A stretch of 28,304 nt of DNA, from positions 1-28,304 of IMG/VR virus record IMGVR_UViG_3300027668_000074. One strand, given 5' to 3'. Both the position numbers and the translations under genes were made by a program. Source of the stretch: a virus (taxonomy: Duplodnaviria; Caudoviricetes). Of this stretch, positions 7,963 through 25,624 are shown piece after piece. The notes under the pieces were generated by a model, which did no database searches, had not been told where the DNA came from, and saw nothing but the letters and a program-made list of their open reading frames with translations. The first letter of the stretch is position 1. Each line of letters begins with the position of its first letter.

Positions 7963-8216
7963 AATTGTTTTACATATAATGGGGTATTTTCTCCTAATTC
8001 AACATTTGCTAAGTCGTCCATATAATCAACTGATTCGTCAAAATTCCAGCCCTCTATATTTACTAAATGGTCTAAACATTTCCAATAATCATAAACAACT
8101 CTAACTGGTTTTGTAATTGTTGTTCCAACATAGCATTTATTAAAACTTCTAATTATTACAGCGTTTTCTCCGCCCTCAGTATCTAAAACTTGATTTATAA
8201 TATCTTCGTTTGTCAT
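7959..8216 (-). CDS. Hypothetical protein (85 aa)
   Basis: ATGA overlaps at both ends; 'RVVYDYWKC', 'GENTP'. Confidence 0.7.
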   Translation of the reverse strand: MTNEDIINQVLDTEGGENAVIIRSFNKCYVGTTITKPVRVVYDYWKCLDHLVNIEGWNFDESVDYMDDLANVELGENTPLYVKQL

Positions 8217-8470
8217 TTTTTGTTGCTCTTAATAATGCTTTCTTCTAATTCGTTTTTATCTTTTTCAAACGCCAGCATTAAAAAACATTTATGTGCTGGT
8301 AATTTTGTTATTTCTTCAATCTTTCTAACATCCCCATGACAGAGTGCATAGATGGAACTAAACCATCCATATTTTTGAGCAAAGCCTTCAGCTCTGGTGG
8401 GGATTCTACTTGACCCTGCTTCGCTAAAAATTTCGGGATAAGATTCAAATACTCTTTTTTTAAATTCCAA
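8213..8470 (-). CDS. Probable -1 frameshift extension (gpT-like) of the upstream chaperone-like gene
   Basis: 85 codons in the -1 frame of 8308-8949, overlapping it by 163 nt; only a TTG start, located inside a T9 run; stop couples by ATGA to next gene. Confidence 0.7.
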   Translation of the reverse strand: MEFKKRVFESYPEIFSEAGSSRIPTRAEGFAQKYGWFSSIYALCHGDVRKIEEITKLPAHKCFLMLAFEKDKNELEESIIKSNKK

Positions 8471-8949
8471 AAAAAAACCAACGCTCCAAAAACTATGTCT
8501 AATCTCATGTTTCTCATATCGTATTTAGTTGAACTTTCATAATCTTCAATCAAATACTTTTCTTTTTTAGTAAATATTATTGGCCTATATAAAACCCCCA
8601 TTGCCTTGTGCATTAAATTCCACTCAGTTAATTCGTCTACATCAGCAAACGCGCCCAAAGTAATTTTGTCTAAATCATATATAAAACCAAACTCTTTATT
8701 ATTTAATTTAAACCTATCTACAAAAGTTGTTTTATCAGTAAATAGCTTTTCTATTGAGTTTGTAATTTCATCAACGTCAGTAGCTCTTATATTTAAAACA
8801 TCTTTAAGAGTTACTTTACAAAATATTTCAATCATTTTTTGCTGTAGAAATAAACTCATTTCTTTTCCTTCAGCAACTTTTAACCATTGTTGATATTGTA
8901 TTAATGTTATTTCTTTTAAACTTGTTGGGATGCTTAGTGTTAGTTTCAT
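8308..8949 (-). CDS. Putative tail assembly chaperone (gpG-like)
   Basis: 213 aa upstream of neck/tail genes, carries slippery run GTT TTT TTT TGG AAT TTA AAA AAA; function inferred from frameshift architecture. Confidence 0.6.
   Translation of the reverse strand: MKLTLSIPTSLKEITLIQYQQWLKVAEGKEMSLFLQQKMIEIFCKVTLKDVLNIRATDVDEITNSIEKLFTDKTTFVDRFKLNNKEFGFIYDLDKITLGAFADVDELTEWNLMHKAMGVLYRPIIFTKKEKYLIEDYESSTKYDMRNMRLDIVFGALVFFWNLKKEYLNLIPKFLAKQGQVESPPELKALLKNMDGLVPSMHSVMGMLERLKK
8455..8479 (-). promoter_or_regulatory. Putative programmed -1 ribosomal frameshift site
   Basis: Minus strand GGTTTTTTTTTGGAATTTAAAAAAA; in-frame heptamers T TTT TTT, T TTA AAA, A AAA AAA. Confidence 0.65.
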
Positions 8950-8990: not shown

Positions 8991-10163
8991 CTAAAATAAA
9001 TGATATTCGCCTCTGTTTGGGTTGTCTAAAACCATCATCATAGAATAACGAGCTGAATCGATTGCATGGTCGCCAGTCATGGGGTTTGGTTTTTGGAGTG
9101 AATTACCTAGTTTGTCTTTCATCCAGACATAGCCTTCCAGCTCTTTCTTTAGGTTCTTGCTTTTACTTGTTACAAATACCTCGTTTTGATTAATTAGATT
9201 AATGCCATAGACTATAGAATCCTTTCCTTTAGTTACTGGGAATATATTAACTCCGCTCAATCTTATTTCTGCAATAGATTTTGGTTCTGCTGAATCTGCA
9301 TAAATATTACAATCTATATTATTGTTTTTAATAAAGTTGGAAATATCTCTGTTAAGCATTCCTGTTTTATAAAGCACTTCGTCAAATATGTAACCATCAT
9401 TATACTTATATAATAAGCACATCGAACTTGGGTCAATTGAATAGCCAAAATCTAATCCAGCTCCTATTAATCTTGCTTCATTAGGAACAGAATTAATCTC
9501 TTTCCAATTAGGAATGCAAGCCCCTTCAAGTGAGCCAATTTCTCCCAACCCATAAACACGCCACCAATTCGCCCAGTAGCTGGAAGTTTTAGCTTTCTCT
9601 TTAGCTTTCTCTATTTCCTTAACAATTGATTCTGGTAAAGATTCGTTGTCCTTGTAGGTTAATGTAAGAAAGTCTGTATCTGGTTCGTTGATAAGTTCTT
9701 TGTCTGCCCAGAATAAGGAAGTAGGGTTGTAATCTAACCAAATACAATTTGAGGTTCTTATACTTAGTTGTTGATATGCATCAAAAGGAACGTTGTTCGC
9801 CTCATTGATATACAAATCTGTCCTTCTTGCTCCGCGTAATTTATCTGGCTGGTCAGTTGAAAAGAACTCAATATATGAGCCAGTATCAAACGTATATTTT
9901 AAAGTGCTTCTATTAAAAGAACTTTCATAAAACCTGTTTAATCCTTTAAGTATATTAATAAAATCTTTTAAAGCTCCTCTTCTTAAATGAGGAATTGATT
10001 CAGCAACAACGCTTATTTCTTTGTTTTCATTTGTTCCAGCATAATGAATTAATAAACAAAGAATACCAATTGTTTTTCCAGCAGATGTTCCGCCTCTTAC
10101 AATTTTAGTTCTTGATTCTAAATCTTTTAGTTTAAAAAATGCCTTTGTTCTTTTAGGTATCAT
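8991..10163 (-). CDS. terL: Terminase large subunit (PBSX/SPP1-like)
   Basis: Walker A GGTSAGKT, Walker B LYINEAN, coupling motif DYNP, nuclease motifs GLDFG, ADSAEP, DHAIDSARY. Confidence 0.96.
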   Translation of the reverse strand: MIPKRTKAFFKLKDLESRTKIVRGGTSAGKTIGILCLLIHYAGTNENKEISVVAESIPHLRRGALKDFINILKGLNRFYESSFNRSTLKYTFDTGSYIEFFSTDQPDKLRGARRTDLYINEANNVPFDAYQQLSIRTSNCIWLDYNPTSLFWADKELINEPDTDFLTLTYKDNESLPESIVKEIEKAKEKAKTSSYWANWWRVYGLGEIGSLEGACIPNWKEINSVPNEARLIGAGLDFGYSIDPSSMCLLYKYNDGYIFDEVLYKTGMLNRDISNFIKNNNIDCNIYADSAEPKSIAEIRLSGVNIFPVTKGKDSIVYGINLINQNEVFVTSKSKNLKKELEGYVWMKDKLGNSLQKPNPMTGDHAIDSARYSMMMVLDNPNRGEYHLF

Positions 10164-10474
10164 TATTCCATGAATAGTGGCCCATCTCTATTTACGTTTA
10201 CATCATTAGTTTGAACTGCTTTTCCGTAAGCCGAATCCATTAAAGATTCGTAAGCTCTTACATCACTTGCGCGCATCTTTTTAATTAAAGCCAGTGTTCC
10301 AATATCTTCTTGAGTTAGTTCTTCAATTTCTCCAGTTATGGGGTTTTTAAATTTCTCTGGAGTTTCCAGCCACTTCTTTGCAATTGTGCTTCTGTTCTTT
10401 GTTCCTACTGGTCTGCCAGCTGGGTTTCCAGATTCTCCTTTTTTAAAAGGTTTTAAATTTTCTTCGTTAGCCAT
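10163..10474 (-). CDS. terS: Terminase small subunit
   Basis: N-terminal 'NLKPFKKGESGNPAGRP' motif, 'LMDSAYGKAVQ'; TAATG-coupled to terL. Confidence 0.8.
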   Translation of the reverse strand: MANEENLKPFKKGESGNPAGRPVGTKNRSTIAKKWLETPEKFKNPITGEIEELTQEDIGTLALIKKMRASDVRAYESLMDSAYGKAVQTNDVNVNRDGPLFME

Positions 10475-10475
10475 T

Positions 10476-11309
10476 TTATTTTTTAATTGGGTTTATATTG
10501 TTGGCTCTTTTTATTGCCCTTTGAGTTGAAACTTTTTGAAGCCTTTCAACTTCTTTTTTATAGGGGTAGCAATGCTTCATTTGTTCAAGAGAGTAATATA
10601 CTATTGAAGCCCTGTAGGGTTTTTCTTTTGTTTGGTATATTGGCATAACGCCGTGAATTTCTGTCTGCCCATCAAATATTGCTAAATATCCGTCCTCTTG
10701 AGATAAAGCAAAACCATATTCTGGAAATACTAATTGACCGCCAATTATTCCATCCCTAAGTATTAAAACATTAGATAAGTTTTTTTTAAAATTGCCTGAA
10801 TCTCTGTGGTATTTTATTGCGTGATTTACGTTTATATTGCAAGTTAAAAAAGGAGAGTTTTTGTCAATAGCATAATCTTTAACTACGCTTTCTTTAATTA
10901 CTTTAATATCTCTATTGTATTGCTCTGGTAAATATTTTTTATAAACTTCTATTAAATCAGACATAAAAGTAAACATTACATTTGTGTTTTGTTTTTCTTT
11001 TCTTGTATGCGAAGAAAACCTACAGAAGTCGTTTCTTCTTGCTATTCTAGGCAACGAACCGAAAATACTGCTCTGAGTTGGCAATCCTCTCGTTCTTGAG
11101 CTTTTAGAAAGTTTTGTTGAAATTGCTGCCTTTCTAACTGGTAATAATTTTTTATTTTCAATCTTAATATATACGCCTACAGCTTTTCCGTCTTTTACAA
11201 AAACGCAATCTTCTGAAATTACTTTGTTGTAATGTTCTTTTTTTGGAGTAGTTTTTAAAAGCTCCTTGCAGTCTTTTATTTTATTAAGATTTATCTTTTT
11301 CAATTTCAA
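10476..11309 (-). CDS. TET/JBP-like Fe(II)/2-oxoglutarate dioxygenase
   Basis: H168-R-D170 (YHRDSGN), GGQLVFPE, IFDG, H219 (IHGVMPI), R233-x-S235 (RASIVYY); TTG start. Confidence 0.8.
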   Translation of the reverse strand: MKLKKINLNKIKDCKELLKTTPKKEHYNKVISEDCVFVKDGKAVGVYIKIENKKLLPVRKAAISTKLSKSSRTRGLPTQSSIFGSLPRIARRNDFCRFSSHTRKEKQNTNVMFTFMSDLIEVYKKYLPEQYNRDIKVIKESVVKDYAIDKNSPFLTCNINVNHAIKYHRDSGNFKKNLSNVLILRDGIIGGQLVFPEYGFALSQEDGYLAIFDGQTEIHGVMPIYQTKEKPYRASIVYYSLEQMKHCYPYKKEVERLQKVSTQRAIKRANNINPIKK

Positions 11310-11871
11310 TTAGTTTTAAAATAAATTGCGAGTAATCTTCAAGCCCTAAATCTTTTACCTTTTTATTTAACCACTCTACAACCTTTTCAAATGTTTCGGA
11401 ATCATAAACTAAATACAGCCTTTTTATTTCTGAGTTCATAAAATTGTCAAGTTCAAGCTCTGGGTTTGCTCCATTATAGCTGTCTGTATTGCTAAGATTG
11501 TCTTGAAAAACAGGCATATTCAAACCCCAGTCTTCCAACTCTTTTGTCTCCCATTCATTGGCAACCATGTCCCAATCCCAATCTCCAAAACCTACGTTGT
11601 CCTTTACTATAAATTCTCTCTGTTGTTTCACTGTTAATCCGCTTGCTTTAATAATTGAAACTTCTTTTAATCCAGCCTCTTTACAAGCTTTTAATCTCAT
11701 ATTACCACCCAACACAATTAAGTCATCATTAACTACAATAGGTCTAATCTTAAGCATCTCTGGAAACTCTTTGATTGACTTAACCAGTTTATGAAATTTA
11801 TCATCCTTTATTAACCTAGGGTTGTCTGGATTTGATTTTATTTTATATAGTTTAATAGTTTCTGTTTTCAC
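11284..11871 (-). CDS. ParB/Srx N-terminal domain protein
   Basis: 'NPDNPRLI', 'RPIVVN...LGGNMRLKA', 'FIVKDN...GDWDWD'; start moved to GTG 11871 (GTGA overlap with upstream stop) instead of 11889. Confidence 0.88.
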   Translation of the reverse strand: MKTETIKLYKIKSNPDNPRLIKDDKFHKLVKSIKEFPEMLKIRPIVVNDDLIVLGGNMRLKACKEAGLKEVSIIKASGLTVKQQREFIVKDNVGFGDWDWDMVANEWETKELEDWGLNMPVFQDNLSNTDSYNGANPELELDNFMNSEIKRLYLVYDSETFEKVVEWLNKKVKDLGLEDYSQFILKLIEIEKDKS

Positions 11872-12059
11872 GAGCCACAGTTTAGGCAATCCTCATTGTC
11901 AATTTCACAATCTCTAACTGGTTCTTTCATTACATTAGCATCAATTATCACTTGTCTTAATTTATCTCCAAACACTTGGTTATTTGGGTTGAAAACATGG
12001 AGTGAATGTATTTGTCTCAATATTTCCAGATGTAGTTTTGCTTCTTTTTCAGTTATCAT
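11868..12059 (-). CDS. Small hypothetical protein with C-terminal CxxCGS
   Basis: 63 aa, ends RDCEIDNEDCLNCGS; coupled to ParB-like gene. Confidence 0.7.
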   Translation of the reverse strand: MITEKEAKLHLEILRQIHSLHVFNPNNQVFGDKLRQVIIDANVMKEPVRDCEIDNEDCLNCGS

Positions 12060-19131: not shown

Positions 19132-19304
19132 TATTCATTATTATTAACGTTTGTTACTAATTTTTGGGAAAATTGAATAATTTTTTATATAATTGATATA
19201 AGGAATTACTGATAAGAAATATGTTAATTAACGTGTTTATTCCTAATTTATATATAGATGATGTTGTTTTGATGTATATTGCGCATACACCAACAAAAAC
19301 TAAA

Positions 19305-19859
19305 ATGAATAATTCAAGCGATAGAGTTATTGAACTGCTAAAGGAATTGAATATGTCACCTAATTATTTTTCAAGGCAATGTGGATATTCACAACCGACA
19401 ACCATTTACAATGTCTGTAATGGTGGCCTGCCTAGTTCAAAAACTATAAACAGAATATGTGATAAATTTGCTCAAGTAAATAGAGACTGGTTGTCAACTG
19501 GTTTTGGAAATATGTTTATTGATGCAACAATCAAAGCAAAAGAGCCTTTAATAAATGAGGACGATTTGACTACAACTGCTTCTCAGATAATTAACACTTT
19601 GCAACCAAAAATTCAAAATGTTATTGATACAATTGTTCCTAAAATGTTAAGACACGATTTAGTTACCAAAGCAGAAAAAGTTCTTTCTGACCTAAGTGGA
19701 GCGTTTGAAGAACTTAATCAAGTGAAAACAGTACTAGATTCCCAGACTGCGGAACTAGAGGCAATACATAAAAAAATAAACTCCATTGAAAGAATGGCAG
19801 CTATGAGAGTGATTAAAGAAGCTAGCAAAAAAAACAAGGGGGGTTTAGACCTTAATTAA
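19305..19859 (+). CDS. CI-like repressor (XRE HTH)
   Basis: 'RVIELLKELNMSPNYFSRQCGYSQPTTIYNV...PSSKTINRIC...VNRDWLSTGFGNMF'; start moved from 19221 to ATG 19305 (A-rich leader, TATATTGC box at 19275-19282). Confidence 0.8.
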   Translation: MNNSSDRVIELLKELNMSPNYFSRQCGYSQPTTIYNVCNGGLPSSKTINRICDKFAQVNRDWLSTGFGNMFIDATIKAKEPLINEDDLTTTASQIINTLQPKIQNVIDTIVPKMLRHDLVTKAEKVLSDLSGAFEELNQVKTVLDSQTAELEAIHKKINSIERMAAMRVIKEASKKNKGGLDLN

Positions 19860-19906
19860 TAACAGTTCCCAGCATATATTCGGAACAATACTAAAAATTA
19901 TAATAT

Positions 19907-20059
19907 ATGATAGACGTACATGAAATGGGCGCTTTAATAAGCGAAAACAAAGATAATTACACTCCAGAAGAGTACATGGTTTTGTCTGAAGAGTGGGATA
20001 AAGAATATAAAAACTACTTAATAAGAATTTTACCTGAAAATATTAAAAAATATTATTAG
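19907..20059 (+). CDS. Small hypothetical protein (50 aa)
   Basis: Manual ORF MIDVHEMGALISENKDNYTPEEYMVLSEEWDKEYKNYLIRILPENIKKYY; TATATTCG box at 19875-19882; overlaps int 3' end. Confidence 0.55.
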   Translation: MIDVHEMGALISENKDNYTPEEYMVLSEEWDKEYKNYLIRILPENIKKYY

Positions 20060-21257
20060 CCCATTTTTGTAATTCGCCTTCCTCAAATTTCTTATAAGTT
20101 TGAAGCGTCTTAGGGTCTTTTATAGATGTTATTTTCATAATCAAATGGTCTGGAACTCCTTGATTTGCTGCAATTGTAATAAAGGTTCTTCTAGCAGTAT
20201 GGCTTGAAACTCTTTCATAAAATGGTTTTATTTCTTCAATCTTTTTATTTCCGTAAAATATAGTCTTAGTTACTGGCTCATTAAATCCAGCAATTTCACA
20301 AACTTCCTTAATTGCATCATTAAACTTTTGATTGCTCACTTTAGGAAGCCTCCAGTCCCATTTATCCAACAATTTTTTTAATTTCTCTGTTATTGGTATA
20401 TAAAACTTTATGTCTGTTTTTTCAGCTCTTTTAATTATTACGTTACCAACAATATCTGACTTTTTAAACATTGTATAGTCTGAAAATCTTTGCCCAGAAT
20501 AGCATCCAATTAGAAATAAATCTCTGTATTTGTCAAGCCTTTTGCTAAGTTCTAAATCATGTAATATTTGAACTTTTTCTTTAGTTAAATAAACGTGGTC
20601 TGCCTCCCTATCCTTGACAGTTATCTCTTTATAGTTTTCTTGAACCTCAAAACCCCTTAATTTTACCCATTTTAAAAAGGTTTTAAGCCTTCTAATCCTC
20701 CTGTGAAGGGTTTTATCACTTAAATTAAAATTATCCCTTAAAAACAAGATTAAATCCAGCAGAAAATCTCTGTCAAAACTTTCAATATTTGTATATTGTT
20801 TATTAAGTAATATAAACTCATCTATTTGATTCTTTATAATGACATATTGAGCTATTGTGTTTTTCTTGAATTGTGATTGTTTAATTTTTCCATTTATAAA
20901 GTCATTATATAAGTATATGAAAGAACTACTGTTTTCAACTTTATTAATTTTATGTTTAAATCTTGAGTTTAACCTACTTTTTAGCTCATCCCTTGTAATT
21001 ATTCTTTTATCTATTTCAATGTTATTAATAGAAACATGAAGTTCTTCAATGTATCTATTTAATTTATTGGTTATTTGCTTTAATTCAAAACCAGCTGCTC
21101 CAGATTTAGATTTTGGCATTCTTGAAAAACTATTCCAGTTTATAGGATTTATAGAAATTCCAGTTGAATAAACGAGTCTTTTTTTTTCAGATTTGACGTA
21201 ATATCTTAACTTTATAGCAGATAATTTTTTGTCTGGTGTGTCTAGGTAGAAATACAT
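20043..21257 (-). CDS. int: Tyrosine integrase (Bacteroidota type)
   Basis: Arm-binding N-terminus 'YSTGISINPINW', 'GCYSGQRFSD', 'SSHTARRTFIT', C-terminal Tyr in 'KTLQTY'. Confidence 0.95.
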   Translation of the reverse strand: MYFYLDTPDKKLSAIKLRYYVKSEKKRLVYSTGISINPINWNSFSRMPKSKSGAAGFELKQITNKLNRYIEELHVSINNIEIDKRIITRDELKSRLNSRFKHKINKVENSSSFIYLYNDFINGKIKQSQFKKNTIAQYVIIKNQIDEFILLNKQYTNIESFDRDFLLDLILFLRDNFNLSDKTLHRRIRRLKTFLKWVKLRGFEVQENYKEITVKDREADHVYLTKEKVQILHDLELSKRLDKYRDLFLIGCYSGQRFSDYTMFKKSDIVGNVIIKRAEKTDIKFYIPITEKLKKLLDKWDWRLPKVSNQKFNDAIKEVCEIAGFNEPVTKTIFYGNKKIEEIKPFYERVSSHTARRTFITIAANQGVPDHLIMKITSIKDPKTLQTYKKFEEGELQKWANNIF

Positions 21258-24064: not shown

Positions 24065-25624
24065 TTAATCGCTATATGTCCAGCCAGCACCCTCGGAGGC
24101 TGTTGCTGTTGTTAAAAAAGTTAGAGCAGCTCCAGAGTTTGCCCAACCAGTATTTGTCCAATCTGCGCCATATTTAATTAAATAAGTTTGCCCAGAAGCA
24201 TTGTCGCTAGTTCTTGCATTGTCAAAAGTCATATTAAGCTGGCTAGAAGCATTCACATTGAATGGAGCTTGATTTTTATAAACTTGAACCGCCCAACCTA
24301 CCAAAGTATCAGTATAATTTTCGGTGCTCATGCCGCTATTACTAAAACACCCTACCATATTTGCATTTTCGTTTCCAGTACCGCTTGTATTCCAATCTGG
24401 GCTAATAACCCAAGCACTAAGATTTTGATTAAATGCAGTTGCGTATAGAAAAACACCAGTAAATCCAGTTAAATAACTGCCTAATCCACAATTTGAAGTG
24501 TTCCAGCCAGAAATATCTCTATTAAATTTTGGTGCATACGAGAACATATTGTAAATAGATATGCAATTACTGGAAACGTTCCAAGTACTTAAATCAGCAT
24601 TAAAATTTGAGCAACCATAAAAACTACTCCTGAAATTAGTGACTGATGTAACGTCCCAAGCTGTATAACTTGAGCCAGTTGGCGAGTCTGCTGCTGATAT
24701 TACTTTAGTTGCACAATCAAGAATACTAGCTTTTACTCCATAAAACATATTTAACATTTTCAAAAGACTAGAAGTGTTAAATTTTGAAACTTTTATTTCT
24801 GTTAAACCAGCTTTGTCAACAAACATAAAAAGATTGCTAGAGATTGTCACATTTGAAGTGTCCCAACTTGATACATCAATCACGCCAGAAACGCTGCCAG
24901 CTGTAATAAAATTCCTGTTTGCATAAAACATACTAGTTAAATTCGTCGCATTACTAATATCTAAAGTTGGCAAACTTGGGTAACTAATGTTTTCTGTATT
25001 TTGATAAAAAGCAGAGACGAAAGTTGTTGGTCTTGAAGCAAGAAACTTAGGCTTGTCAGTTTCAATCCATTGACAATAAGGCATAAAAGAATTACCTCCC
25101 AAGCTATTTAATAATCCATCTCCCCATTGAACAAACTCACAAACCATATAGCCAGGTTTTATTGAGTCACCAGCTGCATTTGTTTGATATGGATAAAACC
25201 CCCAAATTTTTAGATTTGTAGCTTCGTCTTTTTTGCCTACTTTAACAGTGTAAAGAGATTTATTTACATCAGTGTATGTGTGTCCAATGTGTTGGTTATT
25301 TCCATTCCCTACATTTACTAATTCAATTGTCCCATCTCCCCAATCAATAGTAATATTTTCATTTGTATTTTGAGTTGCATTGAAGTAAAACTCAAATCTA
25401 TAAGGGTAATCTGTTTGTTTTGGGTCTTTCGTTACATCAATATTATATATTCTTTGTGTTAAGTCGCTAGAACCTCCAGAACAACCAGAAATATCAGTAT
25501 CTCCAGACCAGCTTGCAGCAACAGAGCTATCCTTTTGAGATTTACCCCAGTTGTTTGTAGTAGTACACGCAGCACTTCCAAATCCAATGGTATTATTTTT
25601 TGCTCCTTTTCCCCAGTCACTCAT
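24065..25624 (-). CDS. DUF285/BspA-like repeat protein, putative tail fibre/receptor-binding
   Basis: PKD-like 'IDWGDG...HTY'; repeats WDTSNVT, WDVTSVTNF, FNADLSTWNVS, FNRDISGWNTS, FNQNLSAW; 'ENYTDTLVGWA'. Confidence 0.75.
   Translation of the reverse strand: MSDWGKGAKNNTIGFGSAACTTTNNWGKSQKDSSVAASWSGDTDISGCSGGSSDLTQRIYNIDVTKDPKQTDYPYRFEFYFNATQNTNENITIDWGDGTIELVNVGNGNNQHIGHTYTDVNKSLYTVKVGKKDEATNLKIWGFYPYQTNAAGDSIKPGYMVCEFVQWGDGLLNSLGGNSFMPYCQWIETDKPKFLASRPTTFVSAFYQNTENISYPSLPTLDISNATNLTSMFYANRNFITAGSVSGVIDVSSWDTSNVTISSNLFMFVDKAGLTEIKVSKFNTSSLLKMLNMFYGVKASILDCATKVISAADSPTGSSYTAWDVTSVTNFRSSFYGCSNFNADLSTWNVSSNCISIYNMFSYAPKFNRDISGWNTSNCGLGSYLTGFTGVFLYATAFNQNLSAWVISPDWNTSGTGNENANMVGCFSNSGMSTENYTDTLVGWAVQVYKNQAPFNVNASSQLNMTFDNARTSDNASGQTYLIKYGADWTNTGWANSGAALTFLTTATASEGAGWTYSD

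Follow-up and report, generated by a model that had tools for sequence, protein, structure and literature searches.

Published ParB-dependent dioxygenases and a related phage locus

Phage TET/JBP dioxygenases that are encoded next to a ParB-domain protein were reported to convert thymine to 5-hydroxymethyluracil (5hmU) in E. coli when the cognate ParB is present and, without it, not at all or to a lesser extent (O'Toole 2026, PMC13229309). According to that study, the enzyme 5mYOX176 reaches ~1% alone and 35% with ParB176 (Dataset S2), the tested ParBs lack a DNA-binding domain, both ParB domains are required, cognate pairs are favored, the NTP residues of ParB are dispensable for activation, and terminases are among the common neighbors (19.2% of mined contigs). 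A ParB-terminase (ParB-Tls) locus of Iyer and Aravind is named in PMC4738411, and ParB-TET/JBP starts were reported for phages CaiB and Tonitrus (PMC9302106, PMC11955845). Here, we analyzed a locus of this kind at positions 8,991 to 11,871 of a 28,304-nucleotide stretch of Caudoviricetes DNA (IMG/VR record IMGVR_UViG_3300027668_000074; hereafter, the window), in which genes for a ParB-like protein, a TET/JBP dioxygenase, a probable TerS and TerL follow each other on the minus strand. The original prediction described these four open reading frames (ORFs) as a packaging-coupled module for DNA base oxidation. The layout was reproduced, with a 26-nt overlap between the ParB and dioxygenase genes, a 1-nt gap to terS, and a 1-nt overlap between terS and terL; the system is not new, because such thymine dioxygenases have been assayed and the locus type has been named in the sources cited above. 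On balance, we favor, with modest confidence, the reading that the first two genes form a cassette placed before the terminase genes, in which the dioxygenase would make 5hmU from a subset of thymines with ParB as its activator, and bare 5hmU would serve as a partial anti-restriction disguise.

The locus shares with the ParB-dependent clade C1 (5mYOX176/ParB176, 5mYOX182/ParB182) a ParB gene overlapping the enzyme gene, a ParB with an N-terminal NTP-fold domain (NBD) and a C-terminal domain (CTD) and no helix-turn-helix (HTH), a full Fe(II)/2-oxoglutarate (2OG) residue set, and a C-terminal enzyme extension, but has no adjoining kinase, GATase, or amino-acid transferase gene. The window ParB is 44% identical to ParB182 over 194 aa, with 72/114 identical residues in the NBD and 10/48 in the CTD. 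Clade C2 is ParB-independent, with no ParB, no C-terminal extension, and a long insert, and in each of these respects the window differs. The C5-methyltransferase gene that adjoins phage 5-methylcytosine (5mC) dioxygenases of clades A and B (Burke 2021) is absent from the window and directly adjacent in 1/81 related loci. The window enzyme falls in the same compact subfamily as the enzymes of mycobacteriophage Nigel (gp1-gp2), Gordonia phage CaiB, and Rhodococcus phage Tonitrus (~30% identity). In Nigel and CaiB, as in the window, ParB is followed by the dioxygenase ahead of the terminase; Nigel adds a P-loop kinase (gp3) and others add a kinase plus ADDT (ADDT in Tonitrus), neither of which is present in the window. 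Nigel gp3 (L083:1786-2382) carries the RefSeq label terS and matches P-loop nucleotide kinase 3 (Ploopntkinase3; E 3e-72), which rules out the order ParB-TET-terS-terL that the annotation of Nigel implies. We take gp2 of Nigel and Cooper to be the founding phage TET/JBP proteins.

The dioxygenase has a TET-type fold and a complete catalytic set

The dioxygenase ORF (10476..11309, minus strand) encodes 277 aa; translation probably starts at a TTG at 11303, giving 275 aa (database protein P0001), while 62/76 related pairs start the enzyme with an ATG and a 14-nt overlap with ParB. The TET/JBP assignment was borne out by Pfam (Tet_JBP, PF12851; 64.6 bits against a cut-off of 34.9, E 8e-18), by the catalytic residues, and by the predicted fold. 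The previously listed residues H168, D170, H219, R233, and S235 are all present, and the catalytic set H168, D170, H219, and R233 (10611..10808, minus strand) is invariant across 145 aligned homologues down to ~27% identity; homologues form 218 clusters at E 1e-30 or better. A structure model (pLDDT 96.7), which superseded a first model from 21 close sequences (pLDDT 62), gave TET2, CcTet, CMD1, and NgTET1 as top Foldseek matches (E 2e-11 to 1e-8). VIA Z values were 18.2-18.9 for TET2, NgTET1, and CMD1, 16.0-16.3 for CcTet, and at most 15.0 for FTO/AlkB, so that the TET-type fold ranks above FTO/AlkB and non-nucleic-acid oxygenases; a sequence search of PDB chains with the enzyme returned nothing better than E 0.3. 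PHROG and RefSeq label the enzyme family "queuine tRNA-ribosyltransferase", which we rejected because Pfam and the fold give TET/JBP instead. The same mislabel is found on gp2 of Nigel and its kin.

Following C247, the last conserved cysteine, the enzyme has a 30-residue extension with a helix at residues 250-269 (10503..10562, minus strand); such an extension is typical of ParB-dependent enzymes and is here the predicted docking surface for ParB. Residues 61-80 (11070..11129, minus strand) form a 20-residue segment in which the variable insertion is nearly absent (18 residues in Nigel). Because the window enzyme keeps the C-terminal extension and lacks the insert, it resembles the tested subclass but departs from it in one defining feature. 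In a quick tree, its branch also holds Nigel gp2 and fusions to the TAGT glycosyltransferase, of which there are four among distant homologues.

A ParB-like protein is the constant neighbor and predicted partner

The ParB-like gene (11284..11871, minus strand) likely starts with a GTG at 11871 (195 aa), within an open frame that begins at 11889 (201 aa) and on which all ParB residue numbers are based. The protein scores just below the Pfam cut-off for ParB_N (24.8 vs 26.3 bits) and matches PHROG ParB families (E 9e-21 and weaker). Its NBD (residues 7-124; 11518..11871, minus strand) also occurs in ParBs that related phages encode beside methyltransferases, Mom, or glycosyltransferases; N23 and S38 are invariant, and R25 and R65 are conserved in at least 90% of 51 sequences, and these four residues correspond by eye to the NTP-site residues of ParB176. 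A short acidic linker joins the NBD to a dimerization-like CTD (residues 149-198; 11296..11445, minus strand); the interdomain stretch is only ~25 residues and holds no HTH, resembling the published activators. In a set of 92 sequences, profiles of this CTD and of the CTDs of tested-type ParBs find each other weakly (E 5e-4 and 2e-4). We fetched 82 loci with the enzyme (81 scored; mostly 52-100% identity, down to 45% at the edge of the set): ParB lies directly upstream of the enzyme in 75/75 loci that have sequence there, the remaining six being cut at a contig edge. This constancy, the co-inheritance of the CTD described below, and the analogy with tested pairs all point to ParB as a functional partner, as originally proposed.

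We modeled the enzyme together with two ParB CTDs and obtained a score of 0.71, with 0.00 for the best control; the score mark used was reached by 116/157 solved and 2/215 mismatched pairs, counts that apply only roughly here. Contact agreement between runs is 57% or more, with a partner pLDDT of 69 or more, and the interface lies between enzyme residues 250-269 and ParB residues 150-188. Thus, in the model, a CTD dimer is predicted to dock on the last helix of the enzyme.

In this lineage, the C-terminal half of ParB and the enzyme are exchanged as one unit

Across 38 dereplicated loci, pairwise enzyme identity correlates with identity of the ParB CTD (Spearman 0.91; 0.87-0.93 in subsets) and not with that of the NBD (0.02); because pairs share ancestry, the p-values are not independent. 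In a sliding window over ParB (49 loci), the correlation switches on near residue 120. DNA comparisons break at a matching place. In the record G005, two copies of the phage with block identities of 78-97% have the N-terminal half of ParB in common, after which they diverge into CTD plus dioxygenase in one copy and a different CTD plus C5-methylase in the other, identity returning at the dioxygenase stop; G007 has the matching left break with Mom as the alternative cassette. G005 and G007 are possibly assembly joins of sister strains, yet two alleles are shown regardless. The correlation jump and these breaks set the approximate left border of the cassette inside ParB (11510..11545, minus strand; residues ~116-127). 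We conclude that the mobile unit in this lineage is the C-terminal half of ParB plus the enzyme. The literature searched, in part with overly loose queries, contained no earlier report of a break inside ParB or of an assay of a Nigel-type enzyme; Iyer 2013 and the supplement of Burke 2021 may contain some of this.

What occupies the position between ParB and terS was tallied in the best 80 of 591 loci fetched with ParB (not dereplicated). Here, 33 loci have ParB-N6/N4-methylase fusions. A TET/JBP gene is present in 18, directly in 4 and in 14 behind another gene (glycosyltransferase, FkbM, kinase, or unknown). In 10 loci, the slot contains a TAGT and no dioxygenase (7 by scan, 3 by assignment as twins), and the rest comprise C5-methylase (7), ABC-type ATPase (4, with a GNAT confirmed in 2), Mom (3), and other or unresolved genes (5). 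These varied contents indicate that DNA-modifying cassettes in general use the position before terS as their slot. The window data differ from the ParB-Tls description, with which they share a ParB-domain gene and a DNA-modifying enzyme immediately before the terminase, in placing the exchange point inside ParB and in showing no tie to a particular terminase.

We also note several slot variants. In seven loci (L088, L114, L120, L125, L129, L138, L158), the order ParB-TAGT-terS pairs a DNA-type glycosyltransferase with no visible maker of the acceptor base. A third TET/JBP type (L091, L113, L123, L124, L126) has a medium insert and almost no C-terminal extension, is ParB-linked, and follows a kinase, FkbM, or TAGT gene. 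An ABC-type ATPase directly follows ParB in L084, L108, L116, and L137; the latter two have it as a fusion with a GNAT acetyltransferase. The gene after ParB in L127 (5528-6259) has no Pfam match; by eye, its product resembles a TGT/DpdA-type protein, which would extend the slot repertoire to deazaguanine modification.

A broader hypothesis, which we put forward tentatively and hold to be possible rather than probable, is that ParB acts as a socket. The NTP-fold N-terminal half would stay in the late operon while recombination within the gene swaps cassettes made of a CTD and an enzyme, and the CTD dimer would be a partner-specific adaptor that carries the enzyme (dioxygenase, C5-methylase, Mom, or glycosyltransferase) along DNA; in the window, an insert-less dioxygenase would be switched on via its last helix, with bare 5hmU as the final post-replicative mark.

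No follow-up enzyme is recognized in the window or in near-complete relatives

The statement that no partner enzyme is recognizable in 28 kb holds. Pfam searches of 39 of the 59 ORFs of at least 60 aa (the other 20 being overlapping or antisense frames) revealed no partner enzyme, nor did six-frame searches of the window for PF20691, PF18751, PF00145, PF18724, and PF01555. Accordingly, no linked kinase, ADDT, GATase, or glycosyltransferase gene (GATase checked by Pfam on ORFs only) and no C5-methylase was found in the window, which represents a 78% complete genome. The broken ORF at 2-475 matches head-protease PHROGs and also one labeled "DNA methyltransferase" (E 2e-15); because its positional counterpart in a relative matches the XkdF protease family, we read it as a prohead protease.

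The lack of a follow-up enzyme is a genuine trait of the lineage. In the 10 near-complete relatives (records at least 90% complete), no TAGT scored above cut-off (0/10, with one weak match in G004) and neither Ploopntkinase3 nor ADDT was matched; the positive controls for TAGT and ADDT worked, and for the kinase search there was no such control from a phage. A C5-methylase is encoded in five of the 10 and an N6/N4-methylase in two; in five, all five modification families stay below cut-off. Directly after the enzyme, a recognized modification gene occurs in 3/81 loci, namely, one C5-methylase between the enzyme and terS (L009) and two FkbM genes (L081, L082); this family scan of neighboring genes covered 150 representatives, 28 of the 172 listed ones being set aside. 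Because partner enzymes are missing, bare 5hmU is the likely end product.

Alternatively, 5hmU could be an intermediate that is modified further by an enzyme encoded in the missing part of the genome or by an unrecognized ORF, or supplied in trans by the host or a co-infecting phage. The incompleteness of the record, the many ORFs without a family, the ParB-TAGT-terS loci of related phages, the FkbM methyltransferases that follow the enzyme in two loci, and the kinases and transferases in published clade C1 clusters (PMC13229309) are all compatible with this explanation. By synteny (8 records measured), however, the gap comprises only ~2.3-4.6 kb of head genes between the prohead protease and the portal, although the CheckV estimate would permit a larger one; the corresponding stretch in relatives has no match to a modification family, and half of the near-complete relatives do without all five families. 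We therefore regard an intermediate role of 5hmU as unlikely.

Thymine is the likely substrate and partial anti-restriction the likeliest role

By analogy with published relatives, thymine would be the substrate and activity would depend on ParB. We prefer thymine over 5mC because no C5-methylase is a constant companion and because compact-subfamily genes are accompanied by kinases of the thymine pathway and by ADDT; this agrees with one of the two substrates considered originally. The alternative, 5mC made by host or phage methylases and oxidized to 5-hydroxymethylcytosine, is suggested by the nearest solved folds, which are those of 5mC enzymes, by the C5-methylases of half of the near-complete relatives, and by the genome with such a gene between enzyme and terS (G001), which shows little palindrome avoidance. 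Because the fold-match lists contain no JBP catalytic domain, the fold ranking cannot separate the two substrates. The window has no C5-methylase, in G005 a C5-methylase replaces the enzyme as the alternative cassette, and in actinophages the neighbors of compact-subfamily enzymes are thymine-pathway genes. Thus, we consider 5mC a quite improbable physiological substrate.

In the reading that we favor, the ParB and dioxygenase genes would be co-expressed late; this timing, and not a contact with the packaging motor, would be what the position before terS provides. ParB would dimerize and grip the enzyme via its last helix, likely as a required activator, whereupon Fe(II)/2OG chemistry would turn some thymines of replicated phage DNA into 5hmU, which would be left bare as a partial anti-restriction disguise. 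The reason for the gene position and the biological role are the weakest parts of this scheme. 5hmU can block some restriction enzymes, and partial anti-restriction is the likeliest role. Most relatives (G001-G012) avoid several 4-mer palindromes; G001, whose cassette includes the C5-methylase, retains GATC, GGCC, and most CCGG sites.

Several observations weigh against this reading. The segment of 20 residues in the window enzyme compares with 37-61 residues in long-insert enzymes, and the 26-52-residue variable insertion of clade C1 is not found; this insertion and the C-terminal extension are reported as essential, and removal of the insert killed the tested enzymes (PMC13229309). The window enzyme is only 25% identical to 5mYOX182 and separates from nine long-insert representatives including 5mYOX175 and 5mYOX182 (SH-aLRT 100) in a quick tree with long branches. 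That tree has 59 rows, including 30 of 40 dereplicated distant representatives, and does not include 5mYOX67/79; its long-insert set stems from a single motif. A motif scan recovered the contigs of 5mYOX182 and 5mYOX175, which were matched by contig name. Among the tested sequences in parts 1-3 of the four parts of Dataset S11 of PMC13229309 there is no compact-subfamily enzyme. The same study reports less than 5% 5hmU for most tested ParB-linked pairs and zero for several, oxidation of 5mC besides thymine by 5mYOX176 in vitro, which also speaks for the 5mC alternative, and no stable ParB-enzyme complex detected in vitro for tested pairs. Co-inheritance of neighboring DNA is no proof of contact, and in long-insert loci (n=42) the enzyme is tracked by both ParB domains (0.77 and 0.81), so that the split between NBD and CTD is not general. 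GATC (0 vs 49 expected) and CCGG (0 vs 8) are avoided in the window, in which GGCC occurs 10 times vs 26 expected; because GATC and CCGG are still absent, protection would be incomplete rather than blanket. Finally, a partner enzyme could lie in the part of the genome that is missing from the record.

The absent insert, the TTG start where most relatives use ATG, and the near inactivity of many tested pairs also raise the alternative of low activity or of a different substrate (RNA or damaged bases) for the compact enzyme, the cassette being passive cargo of a recombination hot spot. The invariance of the catalytic residues over 145 divergent sequences, the 218 homologue clusters, and the fusion or adjacency to DNA hypermodification enzymes elsewhere argue against this explanation, which we find very improbable.

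Neither the enzyme nor ParB tracks the terminase

Outside the cassette lie a 103-aa ORF (10163..10474, minus strand) and terL (8991..10163, minus strand), which matches Terminase_3 and 3C. The 103-aa ORF matches DUF5681 only, and in relatives the same slot is interchangeably filled by a family that matches PHROG terS; by its position, it is a probable terS. The original prediction had ParB target the dioxygenase to the pac region or packaged DNA. In its fuller form, following the proposal of Iyer and Aravind for ParB-terminase loci, which is cited in PMC4738411 and PMC8256090, ParB would bring the dioxygenase to pac or to DNA on its way into the motor, where 5hmU would regulate terminase cleavage. 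The overlapping genes are consistent with this idea, as is a terL of the window's family within three genes downstream of the enzyme in 65/81 loci (7 end too early and 9 differ). However, enzyme identity does not track terL identity (Spearman rho 0.15; 38 dereplicated loci) or terS identity (0.23, n=17, and 0.07, n=19), and the ParB NBD does not track terL either (0.03). Moreover, ParB has no DNA-binding domain, and the same cassette is found ahead of terS genes from two unrelated families, of terL with identities of 17-57%, and of enzymes of the gpA and Terminase_6 types. In the related Nonlabens/Persicivirga phages P12024S/L (genus Inhavirus), gene order is alike and a TET/JBP gene is carried, but it encodes a long-insert enzyme (30% identical) that is followed by TAGT and methyltransferase genes and lies away from the terminase, in P12024L in the replication region ~5 kb from terL. 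Because neither ParB nor the enzyme tracks the terminase, a packaging mark is improbable, and coupling to packaging is not supported beyond gene position. In P12024L, a 71-aa gene (gp25; L280:16207-16422), which might be a remnant or a free-standing version of the ParB CTD, overlaps the TET/JBP start by 14 nt; its score in a ParB-CTD profile test (E 0.05) was level with a decoy.

Genome setting

The record, from a phage of marine type, is a single linear sequence of 31% GC, estimated as 78% complete by CheckV, and its ends have no terminal repeat. The only isolated-phage matches of the portal protein are those of P12024S/L (36% identity); judging from the portal and terL matches, the host would belong to the Flavobacteriaceae. 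A GTDB scan gave one short contig only and no host prophage. A tyrosine integrase gene and a divergent HTH repressor-like gene lie at 19221-21257 and fit the proposed temperate lifestyle; because this pair was not seen as a shared cluster in related loci, the temperate module may be peculiar to this genome. Between the portal and lysis genes, 24065-25624 encodes a 519-aa protein with DUF285 repeats; relatives carry genes for LamG proteins at this location. At 8213-8949, overlapping ORFs of 213 aa and 85 aa in differing frames, a pair that recurs in several relatives, are suggestive of a frameshifted tail-chaperone-like gene. A promoter scan remained at chance level (33 vs 37.2 expected), and dinucleotide ratios (TA, TC, TG, TT) gave no consistent signature.

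Implications for ParB-dependent base oxidation

Judged by its genes, the system is a compact, usually partnerless form of the published ParB-dependent thymine dioxygenases, and no new kind of system is established. The published work, which trapped no complex and saw activation without the NTP residues, left the mechanism of ParB activation open (PMC13229309). This lineage offers a named predicted interface, the enzyme helix 250-269 on the ParB CTD dimer, together with natural chimeras in which the NBD is shuffled and the CTD kept, and an enzyme without the insert thought to be essential. If the reading that we favor is correct, these two genes would suffice as a minimal means of making 5hmU DNA, with a possible use as a reagent.

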